From: an uncultured virus (IMG/VR IMGVR_UViG_3300037067_008462)
Lineage: Duplodnaviria > Heunggongvirae > Uroviricota > Caudoviricetes
Length of the DNA stretch: 64,000 nucleotides
IMG/VR virus record: IMGVR_UViG_3300037067_008462
Reading direction: 5' to 3' (one strand)
The notes beneath the pieces were generated by a model that did no database searches, was not told where the DNA came from, and saw only the letters and a list, made by a program, of their open reading frames with translations. The position numbers and the translations under genes were made by a program. Below are positions 454 through 63,851 of the stretch, piece by piece; within the stretch, counting starts at the first letter, position 1, and each line of letters begins with the position of its first letter.

Positions 454-2777
454 CCACTTTAATCAATAACCTTGTAAAATCTTTGGTTGCTGATTTTGTC
501 GAAGACGCCACAGCATATGGTTATGAATTTGAACCAGAAGATACGGCGGTTGTTGCAAGTCTAGTCATTGATACTTTAGATAGAGTTCGGAAATCTGCTA
601 ATGTTCCTGACGAGCAACTCGCAAGTTTTGTGGAACAAAATGATCGACTAATCAGGGCTGAAGCACTCAACTCTTTAGATGGCTGGTATGAAGGCCAGAT
701 GATTGAGAAGTCAATGAGTGAACTTAGTTACCATCCTGAACATGTTCGCGCTCACAAGATAGAGGACGAAGATGGGAAAGTGTGGGATGAAGGTTTCGTA
801 AAGGGACGCTTCACTGATCTACCTGAAGAACTTCGTAGTCACTTGTTAGACTATCACGGTGAGAGCAAAGTTTATCACGTTCACCTGGATAGTGGAAACA
901 GTCCGATGATCTTCGGTAGAGACGCAGAGGTTCACTCGATGAATCCAGCGGAACTAAAGAAATCTCAAATGCATGAGATCATACATAGATTAGATGAACG
1001 TGCTTTTCGTGAGATTAATGGTCTCGAAAGCACATCCGCTGAAGATTGGGAATTAGAGTTTTATCAAGAATTTAATAAAGCTGAAATTTATCCAAACATG
1101 ATTTGGGCTGACGGTGTTGTTATCGCTCCTGAGTTAGCCGGTCACCTTAATGACTTTCATGGTTCTTATCCGAATGGTGAATTAAAGTATGTACCGCATC
1201 CACTAGAAGTTACGATGATCGGACCAAGCGAAGTCTTTTCTCAACTATCAGAAATGCAAAAGGCTCTATCTGATCGTGTCCCCGAGATTAAAGAAACAAC
1301 TGTAGTAGATGAATTAAGAACTCTATTTACAGTACCAGATGAAACAATTCAAAGACCTAAAGTAGAAAATATATACAAAGCGTTGGGCCTGCGCCCTTTT
1401 CACAAAGCGGGAGTAGAAACAGAGGATGAAGCAAATCTAGGGGGAGATTATAGCGAACCGGAAGCTCCTCCCGCTGAACCAACTGAAAAAATGCCTTACG
1501 TTAACTCCCAGGAATCCGGTTTGCCGGAAGAGGAACTTGCTCTTCCGCAAGCCAAACCGCAAGGTTCAACAAACATGACGACTGTTGCGGATAATTACCA
1601 AAACGATCCCAACATTAGAAACTATGTTCTTGAACACTTCATGAATGAATTCATTAATCAAGTTAAACAAGAAAGACCTGAAGTTAGGGGAGCTTTCGAT
1701 ATAACGGTTCCCGAAAAGAAACAGATAGTTAGCAAGCTCATGCAGTTAAACCAGATAATTACCGGAAACAAAGGTAACAGTACCGCCGTACAAGCCGGTA
1801 TGAATGCTTCTGTAGAAGAATATATCAGAGAATCTTTGATCAATTACGCCTCAATGAATTTCGGTGAAGAAGCCGGTGATTCACTTCGTTTGTTAAGTCA
1901 AAACGGAGACTTCCTTTCCTTGATGGCTAACGTTATCGGAAATGGAACTTTACCTGTAGGTCAAGAAGGAAAAGAAGATCAGCCTTGGCCTGGAAAGAAA
2001 CAAGATTTCCTTGTCAATCCGAGTGGAGGTAAAGAAAAGAAACCCGATTCAGAAGCAAAGAAACCCGCTTCAAAACCAAAGAAACCTAAAGCAGAGGAAC
2101 CTTCCACAGAAGATAGAGAACCAAGCGACGAAGAACTGAAGACTATAGAGCATCAGGAATCTAGTCCTGTCAAAAAAGGCATTCAACCCTTAAAAAAAAA
2201 CATAACACCGATTACTGGGAAAATAACACCGATTTACGGAAGAGATGATGGTGTACAAAATCGAACATATCAAGCAGATGATATAAAAAATCAAATATAT
2301 CAGGATGCGGGAAATACACTTATTGGTTCAGGAATAGCTCAACATTTAGGAATGCAACCGGGGACTAGACCTGTTGAAAATATAGGAAATATAGCAACAA
2401 GGTTGATAACTAATAAAAACGCTCAAAATGCAGTTAAAGATTTAGAAAGTATAAACGCTCAAGGAAACCATCCATTAAGTACTAAAAGTGGAGAATTGGG
2501 GGTATCGAATATGCCTTTGCCGGATGAAGTTGGTGGAGATTATTTAAATAAAATTAACCAAATCAATGAAGAAAACGGTCTCCCCAAAAACAAACTGGCT
2601 GCTGGTGACGGAAAACCAAAAGAAACAGAAGAAGAAAGAGCTGCGCGTATAGAAGAAGACAATAAAATGATTAAAAATGCCCCACCTCAAGAAATCAAAC
2701 CTAAACTAGAAGGAAGAACTATAGGTTGGAAAGGTACTCCTACAACTTTTGGTAAAGGTACTCAAGACCCTTTCTAA
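450..2777 (+). CDS. Acidic, low-complexity probable internal head protein; probably extended to 3265 by a -1 frameshift
   Basis: 775 aa ORF upstream of the protease/capsid genes; many hydrophobic-x-K-[S/A] motifs; ends GAC CCT TTC TAA. Confidence 0.55.
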   Translation: MTTLINNLVKSLVADFVEDATAYGYEFEPEDTAVVASLVIDTLDRVRKSANVPDEQLASFVEQNDRLIRAEALNSLDGWYEGQMIEKSMSELSYHPEHVRAHKIEDEDGKVWDEGFVKGRFTDLPEELRSHLLDYHGESKVYHVHLDSGNSPMIFGRDAEVHSMNPAELKKSQMHEIIHRLDERAFREINGLESTSAEDWELEFYQEFNKAEIYPNMIWADGVVIAPELAGHLNDFHGSYPNGELKYVPHPLEVTMIGPSEVFSQLSEMQKALSDRVPEIKETTVVDELRTLFTVPDETIQRPKVENIYKALGLRPFHKAGVETEDEANLGGDYSEPEAPPAEPTEKMPYVNSQESGLPEEELALPQAKPQGSTNMTTVADNYQNDPNIRNYVLEHFMNEFINQVKQERPEVRGAFDITVPEKKQIVSKLMQLNQIITGNKGNSTAVQAGMNASVEEYIRESLINYASMNFGEEAGDSLRLLSQNGDFLSLMANVIGNGTLPVGQEGKEDQPWPGKKQDFLVNPSGGKEKKPDSEAKKPASKPKKPKAEEPSTEDREPSDEELKTIEHQESSPVKKGIQPLKKNITPITGKITPIYGRDDGVQNRTYQADDIKNQIYQDAGNTLIGSGIAQHLGMQPGTRPVENIGNIATRLITNKNAQNAVKDLESINAQGNHPLSTKSGELGVSNMPLPDEVGGDYLNKINQINEENGLPKNKLAAGDGKPKETEEERAARIEEDNKMIKNAPPQEIKPKLEGRTIGWKGTPTTFGKGTQDPF

Positions 2778-3265
2778 AACCGCCGTCAGAAGGCGACGTA
2801 GAGCAAAGGCTGGCAAGATTTCTTGGACGACCTAAAGAGATAGAGCCTATTCTTCCGCGTTTACAGAGACCGGAAGACAATCGTATTCTTCTTCCAGAAA
2901 AAGAAAGATTGAATGCCGTAGATAGACCTAGTGTGATTGAAAGTTTTCTTTCAAAATTAGGATTGAATAAAAATGTATACCCAGAAGAAACCCCCATCAA
3001 TCCGACTGCTGCCGGTTATGGCGATGGTCCAGAGGATTATCAACGTATAAAAAATGAACTTCCGACACCATCAGAATTTGATCCTAATGTAACCAACGAA
3101 GCCGTTGCCAGCGATGAAGCTAACTATGAAGTTCCTTCTATGAATTCAAGAGAAAGAAATAATTGGATTATTAATCTTTTTAGAAGCAAAGGAATGTTCA
3201 GTTTTGGAGACGGAAGACCCGGAGTTGAAAACGGAAGAAATATCGAAATAGGATTAGACGAGTGA
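2768..3265 (+). CDS. -1 frame extension of the 450..2777 protein (tracked as 2909..3265)
   Basis: The -1 frame is open from 2756 to 3265 with no convincing start near its 5' end; slippery heptamer CCCTTTC at 2768-2774. Confidence 0.5.
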   Translation, partial: PFLKPPSEGDVEQRLARFLGRPKEIEPILPRLQRPEDNRILLPEKERLNAVDRPSVIESFLSKLGLNKNVYPEETPINPTAAGYGDGPEDYQRIKNELPTPSEFDPNVTNEAVASDEANYEVPSMNSRERNNWIINLFRSKGMFSFGDGRPGVENGRNIEIGLDE

Positions 3266-7278: not shown

Positions 7279-7317
7279 AACTTTGCATTGGTAATCTAAA
7301 AAAGGACTCTATCTAAA

Positions 7318-8568
7318 ATGAAGAAAAAGGAATCTTTTATCAAATCTAACAGTGAACCCCTACAGAAGGCGTCCACCGTTTATAGCCCGTCAGCGGTACA
7401 GGCCGGTACTTCAACATTCGGCTTCAATATGTCCGCACAGGAAGGTAGTCTAACCTCCTTCCCAATCATGGGTTCGCCGGGAGTTACGAACTCTATTGGT
7501 GGTCGTGACTTCCTTTCAGTAGACGTTACTCAGGACTTCCTGCCTTATATTAACCAGGCATCTTATTTACGTAAACATTTTAAGATTTATCCAATGGACG
7601 GCGCTTCGATGTATATTCCAAAGTTCGCCGGTCCCGCATACGCCTACGCTACAGGTGAAGGTCAGGTTATGAGCCACACTCAGATCCCAACCACCACCGT
7701 AGCTCTAGTGGCTAAGGCAATGGCTGTTTCGTTCAGCGTTCCTCGTGAAATTGCGGACGATGCAATTATCAACCTAATGCCAGCTATTCGTGATCACCTT
7801 GTAGACCGTTTTGTTCTGCACGAAGAGGAAGCATTCCTGCTTGGCGATACCACAACTTTCTCCGGTACCGGATCGGTACGTTCAATGTTTGATGGTCTTT
7901 CTAAGCTTGGTGAATGGGACAGCCTCGGTGGTACCGATGTAATGTCTAATAACGCCGCACAGTATGTTAATGCTGCCGGAAACCCCTTCTCAACCGAACA
8001 CGTAAACGCTTCATTAGAACAACTCGATCTAATGGCTCAGAACCCCTCTCATCTACTTGGAATTATTTCACGTAGACATGCTCGTACCATTCGTGGTGAC
8101 GGTATGGTTCTGAAGCAGTTAACTAACTTCGGTCCATCCAGTGTCTTCCGTACCGGTAGAATTGGTGAACTTTTTGGAACTAACTTTGTTCAAACAAACT
8201 TGTTAAATCCAACTTCTCCGATTGCTACCACGGACGGTAACTATTGGTCCTTTGTAGGTTTCGGTGGAGAAACACCAGCCGACATCGTATCTCCTGCCAA
8301 CGATACTCTTGGAGATATTGGTCTCGGTAACCGTATCTACAACTATTACAACTCAAGCGCCGCTGCTGCCGCTGCCACAACTACTTATAGTGAAGCTATT
8401 ATAGTTCACAAAGATGCTTGTGTTATCGGTGACAGACAGAAGCTCGAATTGGAGATGAGCGCGCATACTCTCTTACCTGCACGTGCCCTCCTGTTAGTAA
8501 GTCACGAGAGAATCGCGTTCGCTGGACAGTTAAGAAAGGGCATTATCAAGATCATCCAGCTTGGTTAA
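7318..8568 (+). CDS. Major capsid protein (HK97 fold)
   Basis: 416 aa; position after the protease; 'EEEAFLLGD', 'FDGL', 'ERIAFAG...IIKI' typical of HK97-fold capsids; followed by a strong terminator. Confidence 0.85.
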   Translation: MKKKESFIKSNSEPLQKASTVYSPSAVQAGTSTFGFNMSAQEGSLTSFPIMGSPGVTNSIGGRDFLSVDVTQDFLPYINQASYLRKHFKIYPMDGASMYIPKFAGPAYAYATGEGQVMSHTQIPTTTVALVAKAMAVSFSVPREIADDAIINLMPAIRDHLVDRFVLHEEEAFLLGDTTTFSGTGSVRSMFDGLSKLGEWDSLGGTDVMSNNAAQYVNAAGNPFSTEHVNASLEQLDLMAQNPSHLLGIISRRHARTIRGDGMVLKQLTNFGPSSVFRTGRIGELFGTNFVQTNLLNPTSPIATTDGNYWSFVGFGGETPADIVSPANDTLGDIGLGNRIYNYYNSSAAAAAATTTYSEAIIVHKDACVIGDRQKLELEMSAHTLLPARALLLVSHERIAFAGQLRKGIIKIIQLG

Positions 8569-8583
8569 ACCCGCATCCATACT

Positions 8584-8611
8584 AGGCTCCCCGAAAGGGG
8601 AGCCTTTTTTA
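8584..8611 (+). terminator. Rho-independent terminator
   Basis: AGGCTCCCC-GAAA-GGGGAGCCT followed by a T run. Confidence 0.9.
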
Positions 8612-8659
8612 TTATCTTTTTTTATTCCATTTCTTATTTTAAACCCATAATCCTCACTC

Positions 8660-8688
8660 TTGCTAAAAACGCTAAATTGTGGTATAAT
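8660..8688 (+). promoter_or_regulatory. Sigma70/SigA-type promoter
   Basis: TTGCTA-17 nt-TATAAT with a TG extension. Confidence 0.7.
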
Positions 8689-8741
8689 ACAGTACAATCG
8701 CAAGTTCAAATTTTTGACTGTAGATTCTCTAAATCAAGTTT

Positions 8742-10322
8742 TTGTCGGGAGTATTTAAATTGTTAGAAGAATTAAACGAAGAACTAATTGAAGGTAAAAA
8801 TGCTAAAATCTGTAAAGACTGTGGAAAACTTTTATCCTTTTCGGAATTTTATACAAAAAAAACTAGCAAAGATGGGTTCAGAAGCCAATGTAAAACTTGT
8901 AACAAACAACAGTATCAAAAAAATCGGGAAAATATATTAGAAAAAGCAAAAGAAAGAAGTCAAAAAACAGAATTTAAACAAAAGAAAAAAGTATATAATG
9001 ATGTTTATAGAGAAAAAAATAAAGACACACTTAAAGCTAAAAAAGATGCTTATAGACAAACTGAGAAATATAAAATAAGAAAAAAGATCTACTCCACCAA
9101 CTACAGAAAAGAAAACAAAGAGAGTTTATTAAGAAAAAAAAGGGACTATTATCGAGAAAATAAAGAAGAAATTCTAAGGAAACATAGAGAGTACGCAAAA
9201 ACAGAACAAGGGAAAGCAGTAAAAAAACAAATTCAAACTAGAAAAAGAAACAGAAAACAAGAAATTTATTCAAATCTATCCCCCGAAGAGTGGAAATGTA
9301 TCCTAAAATCCTTTGATTCGAGATGTGCTTATTGCGGTTCAAATAAAGATATTCAACAAGATCATATTATCCCTATTAGTCGCGGAGGAGAACATGCTCC
9401 CTGGAATGTTATTCCTTGTTGTTCTGATTGTAATAGAAGGAAAAAGAATAGTGTAGGATTTGAACTTCCACAATGGAATAAAGAGTGTCATCAGTATATT
9501 ATTAGATTGGAAAATTTAGATAGAGACTTGGTTGAAATGGGTTTGACACAAGAGGAGGCTCAATTGATTCCAATCAAAGATTTCGTTTTTTCTAATGAAC
9601 CATATGATAAAGAATTGGTTGAATTCATTAAAAAATATGAATGGTTAGGTAGTATAGCTCAACAAACAAGTCACTATTTCACTGCCAGATATAAGGATAA
9701 ATTAGCGGGAGTTATTTCAATAGGTACTCCGAATAATTTTAGTACAATTTTGGGTGAACAAACTAAAGAGATAGAGCGGTTGATTTCTAGAGGAGCATGT
9801 AGCTCTTGGACTCCAAATGGGTTGGCTTCCTCTTTTATTATGTGGTCATTAAGATGGATGGTACAAAACACACCCTATAGAGTATTTGTAGCATACTCTG
9901 ATCCAGAAGCCAGAGAAATCGGTACAATTTATCAAGCATGTAGTTTTTATTATTTGGGTCAGAATTTTGGAGCAGAAAAAAGATATAAAATTGGAGATAA
10001 GTGGGTCTCTAGACGTTACTTCACAACCTTTTCGAGACTTAAACAATATGCTAAAGATTTAGAATTAATATGGGATGATACGTGGAGAAGAGGAATACAA
10101 GGTGGAATTAATAATATTCCCTCAGATACAAAGAATCAACTTTACGAATATGCTAAACAAAAGGCAGATGAATGCGAAACAAAGGAATCTTTCCGTAAAC
10201 ATAAATATGTATTCATTCTCGGTAAAGGAAAAATTGAAACAAAAAGATTAAGAAAAGAATTTTTAAAGAGAAATAGAGTGCTGGCTTATCCAAAACGAGA
10301 AGAGACTAACGCTCTATCTTGA
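8742..10322 (+). CDS. HNH endonuclease fused to a Mom-like (GNAT-fold) DNA modification domain
   Basis: N-terminal CxxC zinc ribbon and HNH core (CAYCG...DHIIPISRGGEH...N...CCSDCN); C-terminal FIKKYEWLG...ISRGAC...VAYSDPEAREIGTIYQACSFYYLG resembles the Mom family. Start may be the TTG at 8760. Confidence 0.75.
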   Translation: MSGVFKLLEELNEELIEGKNAKICKDCGKLLSFSEFYTKKTSKDGFRSQCKTCNKQQYQKNRENILEKAKERSQKTEFKQKKKVYNDVYREKNKDTLKAKKDAYRQTEKYKIRKKIYSTNYRKENKESLLRKKRDYYRENKEEILRKHREYAKTEQGKAVKKQIQTRKRNRKQEIYSNLSPEEWKCILKSFDSRCAYCGSNKDIQQDHIIPISRGGEHAPWNVIPCCSDCNRRKKNSVGFELPQWNKECHQYIIRLENLDRDLVEMGLTQEEAQLIPIKDFVFSNEPYDKELVEFIKKYEWLGSIAQQTSHYFTARYKDKLAGVISIGTPNNFSTILGEQTKEIERLISRGACSSWTPNGLASSFIMWSLRWMVQNTPYRVFVAYSDPEAREIGTIYQACSFYYLGQNFGAEKRYKIGDKWVSRRYFTTFSRLKQYAKDLELIWDDTWRRGIQGGINNIPSDTKNQLYEYAKQKADECETKESFRKHKYVFILGKGKIETKRLRKEFLKRNRVLAYPKREETNALS

Positions 10323-10347
10323 CATTTTCAAAGCTTTATGGTATCCT
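10319..10347 (+). promoter_or_regulatory. Sigma70-type promoter for the small-gene array
   Basis: TTGACA-17 nt-TATCCT with TG; the CTCTATCT octamer overlaps the first base of the -35 box. Confidence 0.7.
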
Positions 10348-13127: not shown

Positions 13128-13202
13128 AGTATAACAGGTCTAACTAAAATTTTCAACCCTCTATCTTGCAACCTTGACTTTTTTCGAGCAACATGGTACA
13201 AT
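13128..13202. promoter_or_regulatory. Divergent sigma70-type promoter pair
   Basis: Minus strand: TTGAAA(13156-51)-17-TATACT(13133-28). Plus strand: TTGACT(13174)-17-TACAAT(13197). CTCTATCT at 13159 sits between the two -35 boxes. Confidence 0.7.
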
Positions 13203-15543: not shown

Positions 15544-16251
15544 GTGTTTAAAACATCATTTTTACTACCAACCATTAGAGATCGATTCAAAACTGTCGTT
15601 TATACCTGGGACTACCCACAAGCTGAATTTCTTGTTAGCTACGACACTCAAGAACAAAACCTCAAAAGGTTCTCTGCGAGAGAAAGACGTGCCCTGCAAG
15701 GAACTATGTTGGAGTTTGAACATAATTGTTCTGAGTTAGGGGGAAACGTTGCAGTTTGGAATAATCTTGCAGCTAAAGCAACCGGAGATGCAATCTTCGT
15801 AATTGCTGATGATATTTTTAATAAAACATGTAATTGGCAAGATATTGTCTTATCTAGAATTCCAAATTTTCTTTCTGAACCTTGGGCTGTTGTAGGTGAT
15901 GATTTATTACGTTTAGAAGGATCGACTACTTGGAATAGAGGTTTAGCTGGACATCCCCTTATGTCCCGTCATTACTATGATCTTTTCGGATATGTTTGGT
16001 ATCCGGGATATCCATCTCAATATTGCGATAACGAATTTTATGAAGTAGGTAATGCAATAGGTAGATTGGTTTATATCCCAGAATTTGTATATGAGAACTG
16101 TCATCCTTTAGCAGGTAAAGCCAGAAGAGATAGATGGAACGGTCTTGCTAGTAAAACATTAGGTCAGGGATATAAAGTTTGGCAAGAAAAAGGTAGAATC
16201 CAGGAAGTTATAGATGATACAAAAAGAAAGATTCAACAGAGATACCCTTAA
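15544..16251 (+). CDS. GT-A fold glycosyltransferase (GT2-like)
   Basis: SFLLPT, WNNLAAKATGDAIFVIADD, YCDNEF; paralog of 17804. Confidence 0.8.
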   Translation: MFKTSFLLPTIRDRFKTVVYTWDYPQAEFLVSYDTQEQNLKRFSARERRALQGTMLEFEHNCSELGGNVAVWNNLAAKATGDAIFVIADDIFNKTCNWQDIVLSRIPNFLSEPWAVVGDDLLRLEGSTTWNRGLAGHPLMSRHYYDLFGYVWYPGYPSQYCDNEFYEVGNAIGRLVYIPEFVYENCHPLAGKARRDRWNGLASKTLGQGYKVWQEKGRIQEVIDDTKRKIQQRYP

Positions 16252-17059
16252 GGTTGTAATTCTAACTCCCTGTTTAAGAAGACCTGCGTTTTTAAAGATT
16301 CTTAGAAAGATGTTAGATAATCAAACTTTTCAACATTTTACACATATTATTTTAGAAGAAGATTGGAGTTATCAAGAGCATGGATTAGAGTTGTCCGGTT
16401 CGCAATTTGTTCAACTACCATGTAAAGAAAAAGAAGTATATTCGATTGCAAAAAAAATGAATTATGGTTTGAGTTTAATTGAACCAGATGTGGATTTGGT
16501 TTTTAAAATGGATTCTGATAATTATTTTGGACCACTCTATCTTGAAAAGTATATAAATTATTTCGAACAACATCCAGAATGTATTCTATCTTTCTCTAAA
16601 AGAGAGATTTTATACAATATATCAGAGAGAGAGTATGGTAACCTAGAAGTCGTTCAAGACGGCAATGTTTGTTTTCGTAGAGAGTTATTAGATAAAGTAA
16701 AATTTAGAGAAAGTTTTGGAGCAGGAGAATTAGGAGAAGATGCTTGGTTTATATGGGATACAGAATCAGCTTTTGGTAAACAAAGTATCCAACAAATTGT
16801 CCTAGATAAGGACTACATGGTTATCAAACATGTTCCTAAGATCCAACCCTTTACTAACTATAAGACATACAAACCATACAGCTACCCTAAAGAAACCGCA
16901 ATAGAGGTTATCAAAGAGGGTAAAAACTTGTGTACTTACGATGTATCATGCATAACAGACAACAATTGCTCTATTTTAAAGGATGTTGTTTCGGATGAAG
17001 ATATTGTTAAATTTTATGAATCATTTTTTATAAAGTATGACTGTGAGATAAAAACATGA
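16214..17059 (+). CDS. GT2-family glycosyltransferase
   Basis: VILTPC...KMNYG...KMDSDNY (DxD)...GED. Confidence 0.8.
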   Translation: MIQKERFNRDTLKVVILTPCLRRPAFLKILRKMLDNQTFQHFTHIILEEDWSYQEHGLELSGSQFVQLPCKEKEVYSIAKKMNYGLSLIEPDVDLVFKMDSDNYFGPLYLEKYINYFEQHPECILSFSKREILYNISEREYGNLEVVQDGNVCFRRELLDKVKFRESFGAGELGEDAWFIWDTESAFGKQSIQQIVLDKDYMVIKHVPKIQPFTNYKTYKPYSYPKETAIEVIKEGKNLCTYDVSCITDNNCSILKDVVSDEDIVKFYESFFIKYDCEIKT

Positions 17060-17814
17060 TATATGACTGTTGTATGTTTTTTAACGAACTAGATATGTTA
17101 GATCTCCGATTACATGAACATACATATGTTGATAAATTTGTAATCGTAGAAGGTACGAAAACATTTAGTGGTTTAGATAAAGAACTCTATTTTGATAACA
17201 ATAAACATTTATTTAAAGAATTTGAAGACAAAATTATTCACTTAGTAGTAGACGATATGCCCATAGAAGGATCGGCGTGGGACAGAGAAAGACACACACT
17301 AAATGCAATCAAAAGACTTCGTATTAAAGATGATGACATTGTTTTAATAGGAGCGGTTGACGAAATAATTAAAAAGGTGTATCCGGGTTTAAACAGATAT
17401 AAAACAAAGTTATTCTATTATTACTTTAATCATGCTGTAGTTCATTTAGATGGTAAACCTGTTTGGAATGAAGTTGTTTGTAGTGTTGATGGTGCTACTC
17501 TATCTAAATATTCAGTTTTTGAAATTCTGAACGAAAGACTAAAAAATGTTTTGGATTTTACCGTTAGAGAAAGAGGAGGATGGCATTTTTCTTGTGTAGG
17601 TTCTCCCGATTTTATCAGACAAAAAATAGAGTCTTGGTCTCATCAAGAATTCAACACAGAAGAGATGAAGTCTTCAGTTGAAAGAAAAATTAAAGAACAT
17701 AAATATTTGTTCGGAGACGATCAATTTAAGATAGTGAGAGTTGATTTAGACAATTCTTTTCCTAAATATTTATCAAACAATAAAGAACGTTTCAAGGAAT
17801 ATATTGATGTTTAA
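17056..17814 (+). CDS. GT17-like N-acetylglucosaminyltransferase
   Basis: IYDCCMFFNELDMLDLRL...VDKFVIVEG..TFSG..K, VDEI, GGWHFS, SWSHQE. Confidence 0.8.
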   Translation: MIYDCCMFFNELDMLDLRLHEHTYVDKFVIVEGTKTFSGLDKELYFDNNKHLFKEFEDKIIHLVVDDMPIEGSAWDRERHTLNAIKRLRIKDDDIVLIGAVDEIIKKVYPGLNRYKTKLFYYYFNHAVVHLDGKPVWNEVVCSVDGATLSKYSVFEILNERLKNVLDFTVRERGGWHFSCVGSPDFIRQKIESWSHQEFNTEEMKSSVERKIKEHKYLFGDDQFKIVRVDLDNSFPKYLSNNKERFKEYIDV

Positions 17815-18511
17815 AGTTTCCTTTTTATTACCAACTGCGCGTCCGCGTTTTCGTTACATAATGAGAAGTTGGGATATGGAAAATTGTGAAATTTTAATTA
17901 GTTATGAAATTCAAAACCCATATCTAGAAAGATTAACAAATGAAGAAAAATCGACCTTTAAAGCTAACATTAAGGAATTTGAGCATGACGGTCCTAATAA
18001 TGGTGTTTGTTGGGCTTGGAACAACTTAGCTAAACATGCTACAGGAGATGCTATTCAAATCATTGCAGATGATCTTGTTAATATTACCGAAGGAGATTGG
18101 CGTCCTTTTGTTTTGCAACACATTCCTGATTTTTTAACAGAACCGTGGGTAGCAATAGCTAACGATAATTTATATACTTTTCAAAATAAGTTGGCTGCAC
18201 ATCCTCTTATGTCTCGTCATTATTATGATCTATTCGGCTATGTTTGGTATCCAGAATACAAAGCATATGGTTGTGACAATGAGCTTTATTATATTGCCAC
18301 TTCTTTGAATAGAATTAAATTTATTCCTGAGTATGTTCACCAAAACCGACATACAGGTTCGTGGGCCGGAGCAGAATTTGATAAATGGTCAGATTCAATT
18401 CAGGCTACCGGTTCACAGGCGATGGAGGTTTGGACTCAAAAAGATAGAATAGAAAAAATTATAGCAGAAAAAAGGTCATTGATTGATGAAAGATTTAGAA
18501 GTAAAGGATAA
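17804..18511 (+). CDS. GT-A fold glycosyltransferase, paralog of 15544
   Basis: Shares HPLMSRHYYDLFGYVWYP and CDNE with 15544. Confidence 0.8.
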   Translation: MMFKVSFLLPTARPRFRYIMRSWDMENCEILISYEIQNPYLERLTNEEKSTFKANIKEFEHDGPNNGVCWAWNNLAKHATGDAIQIIADDLVNITEGDWRPFVLQHIPDFLTEPWVAIANDNLYTFQNKLAAHPLMSRHYYDLFGYVWYPEYKAYGCDNELYYIATSLNRIKFIPEYVHQNRHTGSWAGAEFDKWSDSIQATGSQAMEVWTQKDRIEKIIAEKRSLIDERFRSKG

Positions 18512-19226
18512 TAACAGAGATTTTATTATCGTCTCATTTTATACAAAAGAATATAAAGATGTTGTTAAATATCTTATTACGTCTTTAGAATGGCTAAAAC
18601 TTCCATATTATATTAGGGAAGTTGAAAAAAAGGAAAATTGGCAAGAAACAACGTGGTATAAACCTTCTTTTATTAAGGAAATGATTATAGCTAATCCTAA
18701 TAAAAAAATTTTTTGGGTGGACGCGGATGCTGCTTTTTTAAGATATCCTACTGAGATCGAACAATGTCAAAAAGGATTCAATATTTGCTATCATTCCCGC
18801 CTTACAACTCCTCATCCAAAAATTCCTCCCGGAGTTACTAAAGATAAAAGATTATATCATTCAGGTTGCGTAGTCGCTACTTCAGAATCTCTTCCTTTAT
18901 TGGAGGCATGGATTAATTCAAAAAACAGATATGATGTTCCTGATCAATATTTAATTAATTTCGCGGTAGAGGCACATCCGGAGGTTCCAATTTCTCCTCT
19001 ATCTTTAGATTATTTAAACACATTGCATGATAATCAAAGAAGATGTGGTTCATTGGTCGTTACTAGAAATCCGGCAGTTATGCATTTTATTTATAGTAAT
19101 GCCACAGAAGATGGAAAACCATGTTCCGACCTTCTATCTTTGTATAGTACCAACGGAAAAAAGAATGCAGAGAGGTTATTATTATATAGGAAAGAATTAA
19201 TAAAACGTGGAGCTAAAACAATCTAA
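18483..19226 (+). CDS. Nucleotide-diphospho-sugar transferase (GT-A)
   Basis: YKPSFIK...FWVDADA (DxD)...HSGC...DQ. Confidence 0.75.
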   Translation: MMKDLEVKDNNRDFIIVSFYTKEYKDVVKYLITSLEWLKLPYYIREVEKKENWQETTWYKPSFIKEMIIANPNKKIFWVDADAAFLRYPTEIEQCQKGFNICYHSRLTTPHPKIPPGVTKDKRLYHSGCVVATSESLPLLEAWINSKNRYDVPDQYLINFAVEAHPEVPISPLSLDYLNTLHDNQRRCGSLVVTRNPAVMHFIYSNATEDGKPCSDLLSLYSTNGKKNAERLLLYRKELIKRGAKTI

Positions 19227-19238
19227 AAGGAGATTTTC

Positions 19239-23561: not shown

Positions 23562-23576
23562 AAACGAGGATGATTA

Positions 23577-26178: not shown

Positions 26179-26183
26179 AATAT

Positions 26184-46776: not shown

Positions 46777-48215
46777 TGGCTATAGAAACTTTTGTAGATA
46801 GTGTTAATGGCGTTAGAGTCGTTTTTACAGTTGATGACTTTAATGAAATTCAAGATTGGGCCTTGTCTCAGGTAATTCGTCATACACATTCCTCTATGCC
46901 GAGTAGATATGTAAAGATTGCCGATGCAACTGATTTAACGAATCCAGTAGGATTAGATATCCCTTTAGATGGAACGGTTCTAACTTGGCAAGATCACATC
47001 AATCTACCTCACACACGAAGCATTGAATCCGGAAGGTTATTGGCGAGAGGGTGGACGGTACCTACAAAAGTTAGATGTGTTATTACTACTCCGATTTTTG
47101 ATACTACTAGTCAAGTACCTTTCCCTACTTATAATATGTCTCCTTTATCAATTAATAAAGATCTGGCTTCGGCTGAGATTAGACAAACAGTAACTTCCAA
47201 CCGACACAATCCAAACACCTATTCTAACTTTAGACATTATTTATGGATTATGCCAATGAATAATGTGTGTCGTATTCATCCAAGTCACCGTCCAATTTTG
47301 GATAGTGGAGATAATAAGGCGGCTATCTTTGCACAAACGCCACTCTTCATTCATCCTGCCAATATTGAGCTAAGAAAACAACTGGATGCTCCCAAAGGAA
47401 CACCCAACGCCAAGGCTCTATCTTATGTTCCAGACTATGCAGAAGAAAGAATATGGTCTCTAACCGAAGATTACACATGTTGGTTAGGAGGTTATAAATC
47501 CATTGTTGCCGCTAACGGTAGCGATATTATGCTTTTCTTTAATGACTTCTTTAATGAATTCTTCCAAGTAATTTCTACGATCAACTATGAAGAACTAAAT
47601 AGAGAATATTTCTTTAGATTGGAGAAGGGTGGAGGCAACCTTAGTCGTCTAGAATGTCATAACGTTTCAGATATTACTGCCCTAATGGAAGCCAAAGCTC
47701 TTGATTCAATGGATATCAGCGCCGGAGCAGGTTTAGGAAGAGATTCTATTGAAAAACGTATCTCTCCTTATGGAACCAAAGATTACTATTTTAAAACAGA
47801 TAGAACCACAGAAAGAATTAAATCAACCCTATATGATTCATGTGTTGAAAAGAGTGGAAGCAATATGACTTTTTTCTCTCTAGGTCTACCTAACTTTTCT
47901 GCTGTTAATGACTCTTCGATTCAAAGTGAATTAAACATTCCTGTTTATTTTGAAGATGGCTTTAGACAATGCTTGGTGATTAATGGAGAATATGGAACTT
48001 CTCGTAAATCATTCAAAAGAATGCATAGAGGTAGAGTGGTTTTGGTTTATCAGATCATAGATGGTTTTATATCCGTTCCTTATGAAATTTATTCCGCTGA
48101 TGCTTCCTCGATTCTATCTACGGCTCAAACCAGTACAGTATTGGGTGGAACCACTCAAGATCGATCATATGTAGATATTGCTAAACTCGGAAACGCAGGG
48201 ACCACAGGTGTCTAA
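46776..48215 (+). CDS. Probable virion appendage protein
   Basis: N-terminus (FTVDDFNEIQ...RHTHS...DHINLPH) resembles the giant protein's N-terminus. Confidence 0.55.
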   Translation: MAIETFVDSVNGVRVVFTVDDFNEIQDWALSQVIRHTHSSMPSRYVKIADATDLTNPVGLDIPLDGTVLTWQDHINLPHTRSIESGRLLARGWTVPTKVRCVITTPIFDTTSQVPFPTYNMSPLSINKDLASAEIRQTVTSNRHNPNTYSNFRHYLWIMPMNNVCRIHPSHRPILDSGDNKAAIFAQTPLFIHPANIELRKQLDAPKGTPNAKALSYVPDYAEERIWSLTEDYTCWLGGYKSIVAANGSDIMLFFNDFFNEFFQVISTINYEELNREYFFRLEKGGGNLSRLECHNVSDITALMEAKALDSMDISAGAGLGRDSIEKRISPYGTKDYYFKTDRTTERIKSTLYDSCVEKSGSNMTFFSLGLPNFSAVNDSSIQSELNIPVYFEDGFRQCLVINGEYGTSRKSFKRMHRGRVVLVYQIIDGFISVPYEIYSADASSILSTAQTSTVLGGTTQDRSYVDIAKLGNAGTTGV

Positions 48216-53038: not shown

Positions 53039-55186
53039 ATGAGCGATCAGACAAATAGAGTTGTGCCTACAGTCTGGACACAAATTATTAATAAGATCAG
53101 CTATAACATTACTCCTCTCAGCGATACAATCGGAATTGTTGGGCCTGCAAACGGTGGAGCTTTAAATGAAGTTCTTACCTTTACAAATCCCACCAATGCC
53201 CTCTTAGCGTTAGGTTCTTGTCGTATGACAAACCAAATGTTCGCTGCATGGGGCGGTGGTGCAGGCACAATTAAGGTCGTTCGTATCGGTGGAACAGAGA
53301 ATTTTGATTCAGTACTTTATTATGATCATGAAACCTCTCCTGACGTACCGGTTACTTATGATATGACCACCTATATGTCTCAGAGAAATGCAACAAGTGA
53401 TATTGATGCTTTTTATGATACGGTGGTTGCTGAGTTTACACCAGGAACGAGTGATCTTTTTGGTGAAATCGATACTGTTGATGGGGACGTTATCTTTGTT
53501 CGTTCCGATGATCTTTTTGATACTTTAGATATTCGTTTCGGAACTGCTCCTCCTGCGGGAGCTAAGATAGAGGTTGCTTACTATAACGGTGATGTACTTA
53601 ATACTTTCAATGGACACACAGCTTATGCTTTGTTAAAACCATTTGTAGCTAATGATGTTGAAATTTTAGGCGGTGAAGTTACGGTAGGTGGCCTAACTAC
53701 CATTCACCTAGAATGGGATCTAACGAATGTATCAGATTGGGAGCAAACCTCTATTACCGATAGTACCGGATTAGATCATTCTGGTTATATTGTAGCTATT
53801 CGTTGTAGCGAAGCTGGTTCTGTACCCGCTTATTGGGATATCACTAGAATTGCAAGAAGAATAGGTGCTGAAGCACCATTCGTTGCTTTCTATCCCGGTA
53901 CCTTTGATCCTACCACCGGTTATCTTAATGGTGTAACAAATCTACTTCCTCAATGCTTTATGTTAGAAGGATTAACTGCCGGTGAAGACACCATTACGGT
54001 ACAAACCAGATTGGTTGGACCTAAAGTTTATCTAACTATCGAGAAAACTGATTCACTCGGTGTTGTGACTACAGAAATTTATATTCTTAGTCCAGCAATT
54101 GTGTCGAGTCCGTCAGATCATTATGTTTACGATACTGAAGATCTTGTTACTGAAATTAATGCAACTTCTACCATAGTAACAGCAATCGATCTGAGCGGTA
54201 CATATCAAATGTTTGGGTGGGCTACTCCCACTACAGCAATCACGTCCACTTTTGCAGGTGGAAGTAACAATCTGACCGGGCTAACATTAAAGGATTATGC
54301 ACGTGGTCTTGGTTATCTGGCTCGTGAATCTGATGTTTATTGGCTTCTACCGTGTATTCCTGAAGAAGCAATTACAACTTCTAGTGTTATAGATAATAGT
54401 AAATTCCTTGCTATTTTACAATTATTCTATACGCATGTAAACAATCTCAGTACTGGTCTAAACCAGAAACCTCGCGTCTTGATGTCTTGGTTGTCTCCTG
54501 GATATCAAAATGTTGGAACAATCTCAAATTCAAACCTCAATGTTAAAACCGGATCTGCGCGTAGATTGGGTGCTTCAAGTAGGGTTCTGTACGTTGTTCA
54601 AAAACTTGGCTTTGCTGAACTTGAAGGAAGTGGCTCGTTAGCGTATCGTAGAGATTATCTAGCAGCTTACACTGTTGGCAGACTGGCAGGCTTAAATCCG
54701 GCTGTTCCGGCAACTCACAAAACTCTTGAGATTGGAGCCGTCGATATGGCATACGATCTCGATGAGATGGACGTATTAATTCGTAATGGTGTTTTCGCTT
54801 ATACCGATGTCAATGGTATTGGCGTTTGTGTTGGAAAATCGATTACAACCATTTTAAACAATATACTTGCTGCGGTTTCAGCTAGAAGAATTGCAGACAA
54901 GATTGCAGTAGATACAACCGCTCTACTTGAGGGTCGTTATATCGGAAAAGCTCTTGAGACAGGTGTTACAAGCGATATTAAGCGAGACATTGCGGCATTC
55001 CTTGATTCTAAAATCGCGCCAGCGGAAATCGGTGGACTCATCAATGGATATGCTAACGTAATTGCATATCCCGATTCGGTTAATAAAAACAAAGTTCATC
55101 TGAGTTACGATTTGGCAATTAAGACTGACTTAGACTTTATCGACCAAAATATTTATCTAACAAACAATCTAACGGTGAACCTCTAA
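53039..55186 (+). CDS. Contractile tail sheath protein
   Basis: VPTVWTQI...IGIVGPANGG, GAGTIKVVRI, FAGGSN, PATHK, LIRNGV, SITT, RRIAD; GAGG RBS before ATG 53039. Confidence 0.9.
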   Translation: MSDQTNRVVPTVWTQIINKISYNITPLSDTIGIVGPANGGALNEVLTFTNPTNALLALGSCRMTNQMFAAWGGGAGTIKVVRIGGTENFDSVLYYDHETSPDVPVTYDMTTYMSQRNATSDIDAFYDTVVAEFTPGTSDLFGEIDTVDGDVIFVRSDDLFDTLDIRFGTAPPAGAKIEVAYYNGDVLNTFNGHTAYALLKPFVANDVEILGGEVTVGGLTTIHLEWDLTNVSDWEQTSITDSTGLDHSGYIVAIRCSEAGSVPAYWDITRIARRIGAEAPFVAFYPGTFDPTTGYLNGVTNLLPQCFMLEGLTAGEDTITVQTRLVGPKVYLTIEKTDSLGVVTTEIYILSPAIVSSPSDHYVYDTEDLVTEINATSTIVTAIDLSGTYQMFGWATPTTAITSTFAGGSNNLTGLTLKDYARGLGYLARESDVYWLLPCIPEEAITTSSVIDNSKFLAILQLFYTHVNNLSTGLNQKPRVLMSWLSPGYQNVGTISNSNLNVKTGSARRLGASSRVLYVVQKLGFAELEGSGSLAYRRDYLAAYTVGRLAGLNPAVPATHKTLEIGAVDMAYDLDEMDVLIRNGVFAYTDVNGIGVCVGKSITTILNNILAAVSARRIADKIAVDTTALLEGRYIGKALETGVTSDIKRDIAAFLDSKIAPAEIGGLINGYANVIAYPDSVNKNKVHLSYDLAIKTDLDFIDQNIYLTNNLTVNL

Positions 55187-55198
55187 GGAGTCTAGAAC

Positions 55199-55630
55199 AT
55201 GGCTGATATCGGATTTCCTGTTTCTGGTAGTTTAGTCGAGATTATATATGAAGGAACCCCTATCGCTTACGGTCAGGGGTTAAAGCTTGATATGAAAGTG
55301 GATTATAAGCCTGTACGCCAGTTAGGACGCATATATCCTGTAACATTTGTTATTAACTTTGTTACGGTTAGCGGCGGTTTCTCTATCGCTGACACAGCAG
55401 CCGCAAATTGGTTGCAAGTTATAACAGATCAAATCGATTCCTCAAGCACGTCTTCTGATCCTAGTCAATGGGGTTCTTTCTGTCTGAGGGCTATCGCCGG
55501 TAATAATGACGCTCCTACCTATACTGTTACAAATGTAAGGTTTGTTGATTTGTCTCCGACTGTAGATATTAGTGGAAACTTACTAGAAACCACTATTACT
55601 TTTGTAGGATTGAGACTTAAATCTGAATAA
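55199..55630 (+). CDS. Tail tube protein
   Basis: 143 aa directly after the sheath; PVRQLG..YP motif. Confidence 0.8.
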   Translation: MADIGFPVSGSLVEIIYEGTPIAYGQGLKLDMKVDYKPVRQLGRIYPVTFVINFVTVSGGFSIADTAAANWLQVITDQIDSSSTSSDPSQWGSFCLRAIAGNNDAPTYTVTNVRFVDLSPTVDISGNLLETTITFVGLRLKSE

Positions 55631-55647
55631 AAAATTGGAGAAATAGA

Positions 55648-56040
55648 GTGCCGAATACGGTAACTTATGAGGATGATTCAGGCACACACGAATTCATCAT
55701 TAAAGATGAACCACTAACTGTTGGAGAATATATTCAGATAGGGGTTTATCGAGATCAACTAATCGAATATTACGGGGGGAATCCCCTGAAAAGTTCGAGA
55801 GAAACGCTAGAAGTAGCGGCTCAAGCAGCGAAAGCGTATATTGTCACGTTGAAGGGGCTGTTACCCGAATACAAAGGATCAGCCCCTGCCTTTTTATTTT
55901 CGCAAAAACTTCTCACTAAACCAACTATGGAATTATTAATTAAAACTCCACCTAAACTTATCTCATTTATTCTTAAATCTTACGATCAATTAGCGGAACC
56001 TCCAATCGCTAATAACATGGATGATGCTAAAAAAAAATAG
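55648..56040 (+). CDS. Tail assembly chaperone (G-like)
   Basis: Follows the tube; ends in an A9 slippery run (56029-56037) then TAG. Confidence 0.75.
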   Translation: MPNTVTYEDDSGTHEFIIKDEPLTVGEYIQIGVYRDQLIEYYGGNPLKSSRETLEVAAQAAKAYIVTLKGLLPEYKGSAPAFLFSQKLLTKPTMELLIKTPPKLISFILKSYDQLAEPPIANNMDDAKKK

Positions 56041-56252
56041 CAAATTCTCCATTGTTATATAGATTATTAGATATAGCATTTGTTAAAAATATTCTTCCTT
56101 TTGATTGTTCTAACATATATTCCATGCGTTACGATCATTTTCTTCTTTATCTAGCGCATCACAATTTCAGCGTCAAACAGCAAGAAGAAAGAATTAGTAG
56201 GGCAAGAAAAATTAGAGAAAATTCACCAATGAAAATGGCTGGATGGAGATAA
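56029..56252 (+). CDS. Tail assembly chaperone -1 frameshift extension (GT-like)
   Basis: The -1 frame is open from the A run (IANSPLLYRLL...) to 56252. Confidence 0.7.
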
Positions 56253-56261
56253 GATAAATAT

Positions 56262-57902
56262 ATGGCTCAAGGAAATATCGGTACTACTGTCGATATTAAT
56301 ATATTTAGTGATTTAGGTAGAGTTTTTTCGCAAATAGAACTCTCCCAATCCGAAGCTTTGTCTCGTTCAGAAGAAGCTTTAGAAAAAGTTTCTGTTACAC
56401 AACCTCAGATCGAAGAACATATTCCGGAGGTTGCACAACCCACACATTCAATTGGAGACCTTTTATCTGAAAGTATTTCATCTAGAGAACAAAAAGAATT
56501 AACTATATCTAATTGGTTGCGGGATACACTTCGAAGCTCTATCTCTTTACCATCCCCCCCTGTTTCAAATATACAAGAACTAGAATTAAAAGACCTTCTT
56601 CCTAATATCACAAGATCAGATTTTCCTCTAATAGACATGATGTTAAATAGAGGAGATTATGGAGTAGAAAGTAAGCAGTACGGATTATGGGAAGAAAACA
56701 TAAGAGAAAGACTTGATTACAACGTAGAAAGATATACTGTAGAACAAAAAGCATTCGAAGTTCCAGAATTTGAAAAAGCAGAAGAGAGAGAGCCTTTTGT
56801 AATTCCGGAAGTAGCGACAGCTAAAGAATTAGTCATGGAATTGTTTCATGACATTGCTTCGAAAGGTTTTACACATCAATGGAATTTTCCAGCCGAATCA
56901 TATAAATTCGATTATGAAGAATATGTCCTGACTCCCGAAAAACAGAGAACATTCGAAGTTCCTATATTTGAAAACGGCGTAATAGAGTATTCTCTTCCAC
57001 AAGAAGATGAACTCAAGGCTATGTCTTTTGAGACTCCTGTTTTTGAAACAAAAAGTAATGATTATTCTTTATATGAAATTTCAGACGAGAAAAGTAGAGC
57101 AATTGAAATTGATTTGCCAAATTACGAAAGTCAAACTTCTATTACACTACCGGAAATTGAAACTTTAACTCAAAAAACATTTGATCTTTCAAATGTCATC
57201 GAAGAGGTTCAAAGAGCAGAAACTGTTTTGCCTCAAATTACGGAAGAGAACGCCAGAGAATATCAACCTATAGAGTATGGTACGTCTGAAGTTAATGTTG
57301 TGCTACCCGAATTAACAACTGAGAATGCTAAATCATATTCTCTAGCTGAATTCCAAGAACAGCCAGTATTGATGGATCTGACGCCACTTCAACCCTCCTC
57401 TTATACATTTAATTTAGAAACCCCAGAATTTCCGGTTTCAGAGATGTCTCTTTCCATTCCTGATCTTGCACCATTTAATCCAACTCAAATATCTCTTGAA
57501 CCTCTATCTCTTTCTTCGAATCCACTTCAATTACAAGAAATAGGTTTTGAATATCCTAGAGCAGAGATCCCTAATGTAGACTTACCGCAAACAGAAAGAT
57601 TAGATCTTGCTATGCCAGAACTGGCCGCACTAGAGAGAATGGAAGTTGCTATCCCAGAATTAGCACAAGAAAAAAGAGGAGAAATAGAAGTAAACACAGA
57701 AGAAATGTTCCAGGGTTATCGACCTCCAAGATCATTCGAGTTTCAAACGGATGATTTTAGAAGTTATTCTTCATTTGACTCTGAAATAGAAGCAATATTC
57801 AACGTTCAGGCAGCACAACAAGCTTCTCGTCCACATGAATTACCGTCACAGGCTAACAATCAAATCCAAAATACCATAGGTTATGGGAGAAGAACTCCGT
57901 GA
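56262..57902 (+). CDS. Acidic Glu/Pro-rich protein in the tape-measure position
   Basis: Follows the chaperone pair and precedes the hub; quasi-repetitive LP[EQ]/PxF motifs. Confidence 0.45.
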   Translation: MAQGNIGTTVDINIFSDLGRVFSQIELSQSEALSRSEEALEKVSVTQPQIEEHIPEVAQPTHSIGDLLSESISSREQKELTISNWLRDTLRSSISLPSPPVSNIQELELKDLLPNITRSDFPLIDMMLNRGDYGVESKQYGLWEENIRERLDYNVERYTVEQKAFEVPEFEKAEEREPFVIPEVATAKELVMELFHDIASKGFTHQWNFPAESYKFDYEEYVLTPEKQRTFEVPIFENGVIEYSLPQEDELKAMSFETPVFETKSNDYSLYEISDEKSRAIEIDLPNYESQTSITLPEIETLTQKTFDLSNVIEEVQRAETVLPQITEENAREYQPIEYGTSEVNVVLPELTTENAKSYSLAEFQEQPVLMDLTPLQPSSYTFNLETPEFPVSEMSLSIPDLAPFNPTQISLEPLSLSSNPLQLQEIGFEYPRAEIPNVDLPQTERLDLAMPELAALERMEVAIPELAQEKRGEIEVNTEEMFQGYRPPRSFEFQTDDFRSYSSFDSEIEAIFNVQAAQQASRPHELPSQANNQIQNTIGYGRRTP

Positions 57903-63195: not shown

Positions 63196-63197
63196 AT

Positions 63198-63851
63198 ATG
63201 ATCATAGGAAAATTAACAGAAGCACTCGACATCAATTTTAGGAACTTAGTTCTAGAATCGGTTTCGTTCAGCACTAATCTGGTTATTGACGATATCTCTT
63301 ACGGAACAATTCAAGGAATAGTTGTTCCTGATACTCAAGACGGCATTTTTCAGATTGGCGAAGAAAAAATGAGTTATAAGTATTATGAATCTTATAAATT
63401 TTACACTGTTACACGAGGATATCTTAATACACCAGTTAGAGAACATGCCATTGATGACTTGATTTATAAGATAGATAGAGTGCAAATAAAGAATTATGAC
63501 AGTTTAAGTATTTATGATTGGAGTATAGGAAAAGAGGGATTAATACTGGATTCATACAACAATCCAAATATAATTAGGGGAATGGACGTAATCTCTCAAA
63601 ATGTATACTTAACTCTGCAATCAATAGGTAATGAGATTTTAAATAATCTGACAGATATTGATTATAACGATCTTGACTACTTAGCTCAACTCTATCTCAA
63701 TGCTCTTCCAATAGATTCTTTTATTTATAATGTTGTTGTAAATAGTATAACACAAACGATCAACGGACTTGAAGTTAATATAAATGCGGAAACTAAAAAT
63801 AAACAATTTTCTAATTTACAGGTATTCATCCCCGTAAGGAGCCTGCTGTGA
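63198..63851 (+). CDS. Probable baseplate wedge protein (gp25-like C-terminus)
   Basis: IIRGMDVISQNV...V.V.SI...LEVNINAET. Confidence 0.5.
   Translation: MIIGKLTEALDINFRNLVLESVSFSTNLVIDDISYGTIQGIVVPDTQDGIFQIGEEKMSYKYYESYKFYTVTRGYLNTPVREHAIDDLIYKIDRVQIKNYDSLSIYDWSIGKEGLILDSYNNPNIIRGMDVISQNVYLTLQSIGNEILNNLTDIDYNDLDYLAQLYLNALPIDSFIYNVVVNSITQTINGLEVNINAETKNKQFSNLQVFIPVRSLL

Follow-up and report, generated by a model that had tools for sequence, protein, structure and literature searches.

The window analyzed here, a stretch of 64,000 bases (64 kb of a 134-kb contig) of the uncultured virus IMGVR_UViG_3300037067_008462 (Caudoviricetes), harbors 73 exact copies of the non-palindromic octamer CTCTATCT (reverse complement AGATAGAG), 42 on the plus strand and 31 on the minus strand, or about 1.14 per kb. 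The results presented below show that this word is real, selected at the level of the DNA, evenly spaced and self-avoiding per strand, and specific to the lineage. Its anatomy is that of an uptake sequence or of Chi, but its owner, an uncultured jumbo myovirus, is viral and the word is private to each phage lineage. An earlier interpretation made from the letters of the window and the translations of its open reading frames (ORFs), referred to below as the sequence-only reading, had counted about 72 copies, and every position that it listed is among the 73 (Table 1).

Over-representation of the octamer

The expected number of copies was estimated under several null models. Dinucleotide shuffles of the window (n = 100) contained 2.86 copies of CTCTATCT on average and 8 at most, and an order-3 Markov model predicted 5.0. 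Shuffling of synonymous codons within the 72 ORFs of the window gave 16.8 ± 2.5 copies (maximum of 22) and shuffling of codon order gave 12.6 ± 1.7 copies (maximum of 18), the nine copies located outside the 72-ORF set remaining fixed in both procedures. With these nine copies set aside, 64 copies were observed inside genes versus approximately 8 expected under the codon-preserving nulls. Enrichment persisted in the comparisons with the dinucleotide and codon-preserving nulls (73 copies versus 2.9, 16.8, and 12.6). It amounted to about 25-fold over composition, in agreement with the 25- to 30-fold excess over 2 to 3 expected copies previously estimated, and to about 8-fold in genes over the codon-preserving nulls.

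No other 8-mer of the window deviated nearly as much from expectation as CTCTATCT (z of 30.5). The sequence-only reading had described one-mismatch variants as common and had assumed a G+C content of about 33%. These variants were in fact far rarer than the exact word, the two most frequent forms being the C-to-T variants CTCTATTT (21 copies) and TTCTATCT (15 copies), and the measured G+C content was 35.4%. The flanks of the word carried little information (A at position –3 in 44 of the 73 copies and T at position +1 in 35).

Silent codon choice

All genes of the window are located on the plus strand, and 64 of the 73 copies of CTCTATCT lie within ORFs, 35 in the sense and 29 in the antisense orientation. 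The word is used in all five stop-free codon phases, corresponding to LYL, xLS, xSIx, xIE, and xDRx; the sixth phase would read AGA-TAG and introduce a stop codon. The encoded peptides permit the word by synonymous codons at 130 places, and 62 of these (48%; 38% to 76% depending on the phase) spell it, versus approximately 6% under the synonymous-shuffle null. Thus, CTCTATCT is mostly written through silent codon choice, contrary to the general codon preference, CTC accounting for just 7% of the leucine codons.

A codon or peptide artefact was rejected on the basis of the range of phases, of the proportion of synonymous opportunities taken, and of the codon-preserving nulls, which were applied to the window and to two related phages. 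Since the word occurs in five phases, survives the codon nulls, occupies nearly half of the places open to it, is evenly spaced, and has dialects in both relatives (see below), the conclusion that selection acts on the DNA, and not on the protein, is supported, as is the identification of the word as the recognition site of a genome-wide system. The sequence-only reading had reached this conclusion from the presence of the word on both strands and in five codon phases, and both observations were reproduced.

Private words of related phages

Searches with the capsid protein yielded only two relatives, designated G001 and G002; a metagenome locus, L013, is the same phage as G001. G001 (202,677 bp; G+C content of 39.9%) encodes a capsid protein 76% identical to that of the window, and 38 of the 72 window ORFs were matched in this genome in syntenic order. 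G002 (220,861 bp; G+C content of 31.7%) has direct terminal repeats, is complete by CheckV estimate, and encodes a capsid protein 66% identical to that of the window. No close DNA or protein relative was found among GenBank phages, and a search of viral contigs with the tail sheath protein gave no match. DNA nearly identical to the window was present in contigs of groundwater and landfill metagenomes. In a small sample, contigs of four metagenome runs displayed 30 variable positions in 20 kb, none of which was located inside a word site.

The relatives had been proposed as a place to look for the same octamer. They contained CTCTATCT at the level of the reversed-word control (12 copies in G001 and 14 copies in G002), and each displayed instead a word of its own, referred to here as a dialect. 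The top word of G001 was GGCTCTA, with 186 copies (109 on the plus strand and 77 on the minus strand) versus 18.5 expected by the Markov model and 42.5 and 33.4 by the codon-preserving shuffles. It occurred in several codon phases and in the extended forms CAAGGCTCTA and GGCTCTAnnA. The word of G002 was CTCTT(T/C)ATC, with 100 copies (53 on the plus strand and 47 on the minus strand) versus approximately 12 expected by the Markov model and 28.1 and 21.0 by the codon shuffles. A CTCT core is common to the words of all three phages, and the G002 word corresponds to the window word plus two middle bases (CTCT-ATCT versus CTCT-TY-ATCT). An A three bases before CTCTA is preferred in both the window and G001, and 10 of the 73 window copies read AGGCTCTATCT, which satisfies these two dialects alike.

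The word sites are not homologous. Among the 46 window sites located in aligned orthologues, none corresponded to the word in G001 and, reciprocally, none of 34 G001 sites corresponded to the word in the window. Word density is maintained between phages; individual positions are not. In two regions of the window aligned with G001 (46776–48215 and 30204–30698), the word of the window and that of G001 share alignment columns on opposite strands, maybe by chance given the 46 and 34 sites compared.

Spacing on each strand

The copies were more evenly spaced than random placements. For both strands of the window combined, the coefficient of variation (CV) of the gaps was 0.68, versus 0.98 ± 0.11 for random placements; this evenness was matched by none of 3000 simulations and, in a second run, by a fraction of 0.00025 of 4000 simulations. 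For the plus strand of the window, the CV was 0.60, versus 0.97 ± 0.14 (0.0005 of 4000 simulations equally even). In G001, the CV was 0.64 on the plus strand (none of 4000 simulations equally even), 0.73 on the minus strand (0.0015), and 0.80 for the combined series (0.00025), each single strand being more even than the combination. The CV for the plus strand of G002 was 0.73 (0.011 of simulations equally even). Over the three phages, four of the six strands displayed evenness and two did not. In all three phages, the strand carrying most genes had the denser and more even series.

Copies located on the same strand avoid each other. The smallest same-strand gap in the window was 197 bp on the plus strand (reached by 0.0028 of 5000 simulations) and 179 bp on the minus strand (0.063). 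The corresponding values were 176 and 301 bp in G001 (0.0002 of simulations each) and 404 bp on the plus strand of G002 (0.004). Copies on opposite strands did not avoid each other: nine plus copies of the window had a minus copy within 300 bp, versus 10.5 expected by chance, and the numbers of such neighbors were at chance in G001 (23 versus 22.4) and slightly above chance in G002 (11 versus 6.2). Both strands carried copies in every 8-kb bin of the window and in every full 10-kb bin of G001, and the cumulative strand difference revealed no switch point (orientation counts of 42:31 in the window, 109:77 in G001, and 53:47 in G002). Avoidance thus operates within a strand and not between strands, which suggests that the two strands are read independently. 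Coverage of each strand regardless of the direction of transcription also points to a reader that is single-strand or directional. The readers listed in the sequence-only reading fared unequally in this respect, since per-strand spacing favors those acting on one strand or directionally, such as priming or Chi-like recombination, and argues against orientation-blind binding to duplex DNA, such as condensation.

The word is absent from the major capsid gene (7318–8568) and from the interval between 53573 and 56536, as the sequence-only reading had pointed out. The capsid gene was identified by PF05065 and phrog_10, and its product is the most conserved of the proteins compared with G001. The second interval, the longest free of the word, starts at the end of the tail sheath gene (phrog_279); the product of the gene following the sheath is 64% identical to its G001 counterpart. 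Since the two longest word-free stretches cover the most conserved genes, they fit a weak selection for the word that would yield to protein constraint, strong constraint on protein and codons presumably leaving few openings for the word in these stretches.

Promoter-like sequences

A role of the word as a promoter or transcription signal was rejected on the basis of the location of most copies within ORFs, in both orientations, and of the number of promoter-like matches. Sense and antisense copies were similarly frequent in the window (35/29), G001 (90/78), and G002 (41/45), and promoter-like matches in the 9.5–15.5 kb region were not above shuffles (32 versus 33.5). The sequence-only reading had described the word as abutting –35 boxes at 10312 and 13159. 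This description holds loosely, the match overlapping the word by one T at the first site and lying 8 nt away from it at the second. Since only two of the 73 copies adjoin a promoter-like match, we regard the adjacency as incidental. In G002 (L015–L026, whole record), GGGTATAATA was found in 33 copies versus 0.9 expected, with a strand-specific distribution (31:2), and is probably an extended –10 promoter element; this phage encodes two sigma-70-like factors.

A candidate reader, the primase

The reading that we place first, tentatively and with less than even confidence, is that CTCTATCT may mark the place at which the phage's archaeo-eukaryotic primase (AEP), acting with a DnaB-type helicase, recognizes its template or starts synthesis. 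An AEP primase was found in both relatives (PF22548, phrog_5362) as part of a common replication module that comprises the primase (44% identical between the two phages), a DnaB-like helicase, PolIII-alpha, and SbcCD-like genes. A PD-(D/E)XK exonuclease, RuvB, RuvC, and a ligase were also present among the 137 scanned proteins of G002, in which the helicase gene is located five genes from that of the primase. The primase matched MsCAPP Prim-Pol structures by sequence (E-value of 6e-20). A structural model was built from 35 sequences (mean predicted local distance difference test score, pLDDT, of 93) and replaced a model built from four sequences (pLDDT of 55). Comparison of its Prim-Pol domain with MsCAPP gave a Z score of 26.8 and a root-mean-square deviation of 1.9 Å for 200 aligned residues (Foldseek E-value of 7e-14), and the model predicts with confidence a C-terminal three-helix module at residues 241–298. 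The per-strand spacing of the words in the window and G001 (1.5–2.6 kb) lies within the range of Okazaki fragments of phages and bacteria.

Recognition of an octamer by an AEP primase has a precedent since the primase-polymerase of phage NrS-1 recognizes the 8-nt template word 5'-TTTGGTTA-3', in addition to GTG(A/G), via a helix-bundle domain, according to the available text of the report (PMC8718748). The helix-bundle domain of plasmid pRN1 scans single-stranded DNA for GTG, likewise in the accessible part of its source (PMC13469122). In NrS-1 and pRN1 (ORF904), a short non-palindromic word is thus read on a single-stranded template by the AEP primase of a mobile element, one of these words being 8 nt in length, and the AEP primase of the window phage's relatives carries a helical module at its C-terminus. 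The systems differ in that genome-wide enrichment, even spacing, and dialects are not described for the NrS-1 and pRN1 words in the available portions of these reports (PMC8718748, PMC13469122). In addition, the primase of the relatives belongs to a CAPP/TOTE-like branch and is not fused to a helicase.

According to the priming hypothesis, a start signal would be kept every 1.5–2 kb on each strand, so that primers for lagging-strand synthesis or restart could always be laid. Selection would hold coverage, not individual sites: a new site appearing near an existing same-strand site would add nothing and would not be retained, and sites would be missing where protein constraint is high, as in the capsid and sheath-end stretches. 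Drift of the template-reading surface of the primase would carry the preferred word along, and this could generate three dialects around the CTCT core. The pyrimidine-rich form CTCTATCT, which we infer to be the strand form that is read, would template a purine-started primer. In a more general formulation, for which our confidence is slightly lower again, this phage clade may write a lagging-strand priming map, with one word per 1.5–2.5 kb per strand and a CAPP-like AEP primase co-evolving with mutually unintelligible dialects (CTCTATCT, GGCTCTA, and CTCTTYATC). Such dialects may also keep the replisome off the DNA of a rival or of the host.

If the word is a primase signal, priming in these phages would be far more sequence-specific than in textbook systems, and codon choice would be shaped across a 200-kb genome, a novel form of constraint on the coding sequences of viruses. 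The dialects would then be a natural experiment showing how an enzyme that reads DNA co-evolves with its hundreds of sites, and would suggest that replication itself distinguishes self from non-self.

Several observations weigh against a priming signal. The regularity of spacing, which the sequence-only reading had put forward for verification together with strand bias, holds for the combined and plus series of the window and fails for its minus series (gap CV of 0.83; 0.22 of simulations equally even); the minus strand of G002 is not evenly spaced either (gap CV of 1.14). The 64-kb window does not include the replication module, and the primase of the window phage itself was not recovered in protein searches. 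The C-terminal module of the primase had no Pfam match even at E ≤ 5, and the rows of the structural comparison span primase residues 1–208 only, short of this module. Identity between G001 and G002 was 41.5% for the module versus 50.0% for the catalytic domain, a difference too small to be meaningful. In a set of 18 phage loci encoding distant primases, which includes duplicates and has no primase-free counterpart, about seven contained words above the simulated null and 11 did not. Known primase words are mostly 3–5 nt in length. Finally, a Chi-like directional signal predicts identical per-strand statistics.

Words were also observed in individual loci of uncultured phages with distant AEP primases. 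The motif (T/C/A)CCGGCA(A) was present in 9–19 copies in approximately 20 kb in L035, L041, and L049, versus 0.6–2.3 expected, and the 7-mer core ACGGTCC was present in 24–35 copies in approximately 20 kb in L042, L043, and L050, versus 4–9 expected. L041 also has GCCGCCCA, with 18 copies on one strand and none on the other.

Alternative explanations

A Chi-like role is unlikely in our view, although a directional reader would account for per-strand evenness and same-strand avoidance as well as priming does. In this scheme, a helicase-nuclease, either a host enzyme of the RecBCD/AddAB type or an unrecognized phage enzyme, would read the word directionally and be switched from degradation to recombination, so that broken ends would be protected and recombination-dependent replication would be fed. 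The word has the appropriate format (non-palindromic, 8 nt, strongly over-represented), and the dialects could track the Chi words of different hosts, the G+C content of the three phages being different. However, the density of 1.1 per kb and the 25-fold enrichment are far above the values for Chi in E. coli (approximately 0.2 per kb). No RecBCD/AddAB-type gene was detected among the 137 G002 proteins scanned, where only SbcCD-like proteins and the PD-(D/E)XK exonuclease were found, and none of 405 sampled bacterial genomes of one phylum carried CTCTATCT above the control. The orientation counts reported above also lack the skew with a switch point that a Chi-like signal would lead one to expect, and the word is uniformly distributed over both strands, is not the same in related phages, and has no host counterpart in the sampled genomes. 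According to the available text of Bobay, Touchon and Rocha 2013 (PMC3784561), Chi, a non-palindromic octamer read directionally, is strongly over-represented in lambdoid phages devoid of their own recombinases, the word being that of the host. The same text assigns the concentration of these motifs in lambdoid phages to the region from the origin to the packaging site (PMC3784561), whereas both strands carry the word in every bin of the window.

Protein-DNA interactions on the duplex, such as condensation, packaging, or a protective coat, as well as site-specific base modification (e.g., by a Mom-like enzyme), would make the word a target in double-stranded DNA, which we consider distinctly improbable. 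Regularly spaced binding sites could organize 200 kb of DNA, large sugar-nucleotide clusters are present in all three phages, and a Mom-like protein is encoded beside the capsid gene in the window and in G001, where it is kept at the same place with 55% identity. A duplex target, however, predicts evenness and avoidance of the combined series, whereas opposite-strand copies ignore each other and the single strands of G001 are the more even ones. Modification targets are also not expected to be enriched, and the Pfam scans, in which short ORFs were not included, detected no DNA methyltransferase or base-hypermodification pathway. The Mom-like protein had no tblastn match in G002, which has a LAGLIDADG-type gene at that place. 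Since G002 has a dialect, the Mom-like gene cannot be the common reader, and the HNH-Mom fusion of the window was judged unlikely as a writer or reader of the word. The modification option of the sequence-only reading is weakened to that extent and stays among the less probable alternatives. Lower again is the probability that the phage mirrors a host word, the host carrying it at approximately 1 per kb in the manner of an uptake sequence or of HIP1 and the phage following this bias or exploiting its reader. The density, the presence on both strands, the evenness, and the dialects among relatives all belong to the anatomy of uptake sequences. Nevertheless, none of the 405 genomes (4 + 401) exceeded the reversed-word control, and the highest count was 373 copies of CTCTATCT in 2.9 Mb, or approximately 0.13 per kb versus 1.14 per kb in the phage. 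A host-genome repeat of equal density, which the sequence-only reading had named as an outcome contrary to its interpretation, was therefore not found in this sample of a single phylum. Moreover, a separate host word would have to be hyper-abundant for each of the three related phages, and such words are rare in bacteria. A jumbo phage of virulent type that encodes its replication machinery would also not be obviously exposed to an uptake-driven bias. If the word is Chi-like or host-derived instead of a primase signal, it would bring to light a previously unknown signal for recombination or uptake in a host that is uncultured. We give very little credence to two further explanations. A phage nickase could act at the word to generate T5-like single-strand nicks in virion DNA; the sites are strand-specific, and HNH nucleases are encoded by the window (8742–10322) and by G002, but nothing known about such nicks predicts strong enrichment or even spacing, and the G001 orthologue of the window gene lacks the HNH domain. 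Equally improbable, a biased mutation or repair process (e.g., one resembling very-short-patch repair) could create the word as a functionless by-product. The predominance of CTCTATTT and TTCTATCT among the variants could reflect decay and repair, but these AT-richer variants are expected to be commoner by composition anyway, and such a process gives neither even spacing nor same-strand avoidance and leaves three sharply different dialects unexplained.

Comparison with known systems

The uptake signal sequences (USS) of Pasteurellaceae and the DNA uptake sequences (DUS) of Neisseriaceae occur approximately once per kb, on both strands, in genes in several frames, with even spacing and dialects. 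The phage words resemble them in density, in the use of both strands, in spacing, and in dialects among relatives. They differ in that USS and DUS are found in the genomes of cells, where an uptake machinery reads them, whereas the words described here belong to phages (capsid, portal, terminase, and sheath) with no competence system. Start sites of T7 gp4 and DnaG-type primases (5'-GTC-3' core and relatives) comprise 3–5 bases and are frequent by chance, and we know of no reported selection for their spacing. These enzymes belong to a family unrelated to the AEP primase of the relatives. Their sites act as strand-specific start signals for lagging-strand primers, as stated in the available text of PMC2910064.

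In the open-access literature, no description was found of phage genomes with private words that are over-represented and evenly spaced, and searches with the raw word retrieved only primers, microRNAs, and the like. The cyanobacterial HIP1 (GCGATCGC) is palindromic and tied to methyltransferases, whereas CTCTATCT is asymmetric and its statistics are per-strand. HIP1 is otherwise comparable, as an octamer present in genes at roughly 1 per kb and whose function is described as unknown (see the available text of PMC4390886). Private words provide a simple marker, readable from sequence only, by which uncultured phages can be grouped and the reader protein sought.

Other features of the window

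The positions of the word and the other features of the window are listed in Table 1.

Table 1. Copies of the word, word-free stretches, and neighboring features in the window.
Feature	Position	Strand	Details
Plus series of CTCTATCT	1264..63697	+	42 copies, mean gap 1523 bp
Plus starts, first part	1264, 4656, 5578, 7307, 10312, 12286, 12483, 13159, 13659, 14325, 16535, 17498, 18997, 20490	+	
Plus starts, second part	21421, 22734, 23728, 25424, 25626, 26444, 29284, 31093, 34523, 35335, 36926, 37849, 40568, 41893	+	
Plus starts, third part	42155, 44253, 45110, 47416, 48827, 49508, 51441, 52389, 56537, 57502, 58197, 60184, 62201, 63690	+	
Minus series, read on the plus strand as AGATAGAG	578..63480	-	31 copies, mean gap 2096 bp
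Minus starts, first part	578, 757, 2111, 2838, 3924, 4760, 9518, 9769, 10466, 10806, 11495, 11799, 13486, 15051, 20013	-	
Minus starts, second part	25183, 27195, 30412, 30795, 32870, 36284, 37918, 40793, 43189, 46538, 50758, 52296, 53565, 60990, 62511, 63473	-	
Word-free stretch over the major capsid gene (7318-8568)	7315..9517	.	No copy between 7314 and 9518
Longest stretch without the word, 2972 bp	53573..56536	.	Tail sheath gene (end) and the three small conserved genes that follow
Intergenic CTCTATCT copy and promoter-like match	10312..10347	+	Last T of the word begins TTGACA-17-TATCCT
Intergenic CTCTATCT copy (13159-13166) and promoter-like match (13174-13202)	13159..13202	+	TTGACT-17-TACAAT begins 8 nt past the end of the word
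HNH nuclease fused to a Mom-like DNA-modification domain, single ORF after the capsid gene	8742..10322	+	PF14279/PF01844, residues 195-238; PF25680, residues 293-498
Sugar-nucleotide/glycosyltransferase cluster	15544-25787	+	GT17, GT2, UDP-GlcNAc 2-epimerase, RmlD-like, PseB-like Polysacc_synt_2, methyltransferase
TnpB/IS605 OrfB-type gene (Cas12f1-like TNB domain)	21692-22744	+	Inside the sugar cluster
Four tRNA genes	26106-26429	+	Ala-TGC, Asn-GTT, Asp-GTC, Phe-GAA
251-aa protein with a class II aminoacyl-tRNA synthetase core domain	27981-28736	+	PF00587; too short for a full synthetase
Fibre-like ORF	33798-43730	+	3310 aa

A run of 10 N at 43651–43660, corresponding to a scaffold gap, makes the C-terminus of the fibre-like ORF and the start of the next gene uncertain. 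An origin of the word as a TnpB/IS605 target or transposon-associated motif (TAM) was rejected, since G001 lacks a TnpB homologue and yet has a dialect. TnpB had only distant (32–46%) partial matches, in metagenome-assembled genomes of Firmicutes, from which the host could not be called. G002 has a sugar cluster comparable to that of the window, with a DegT aminotransferase and an MptE/Maf-like protein. The gene content of the sugar clusters suggests nonulosonic-acid-type glycosylation, perhaps of virion proteins.

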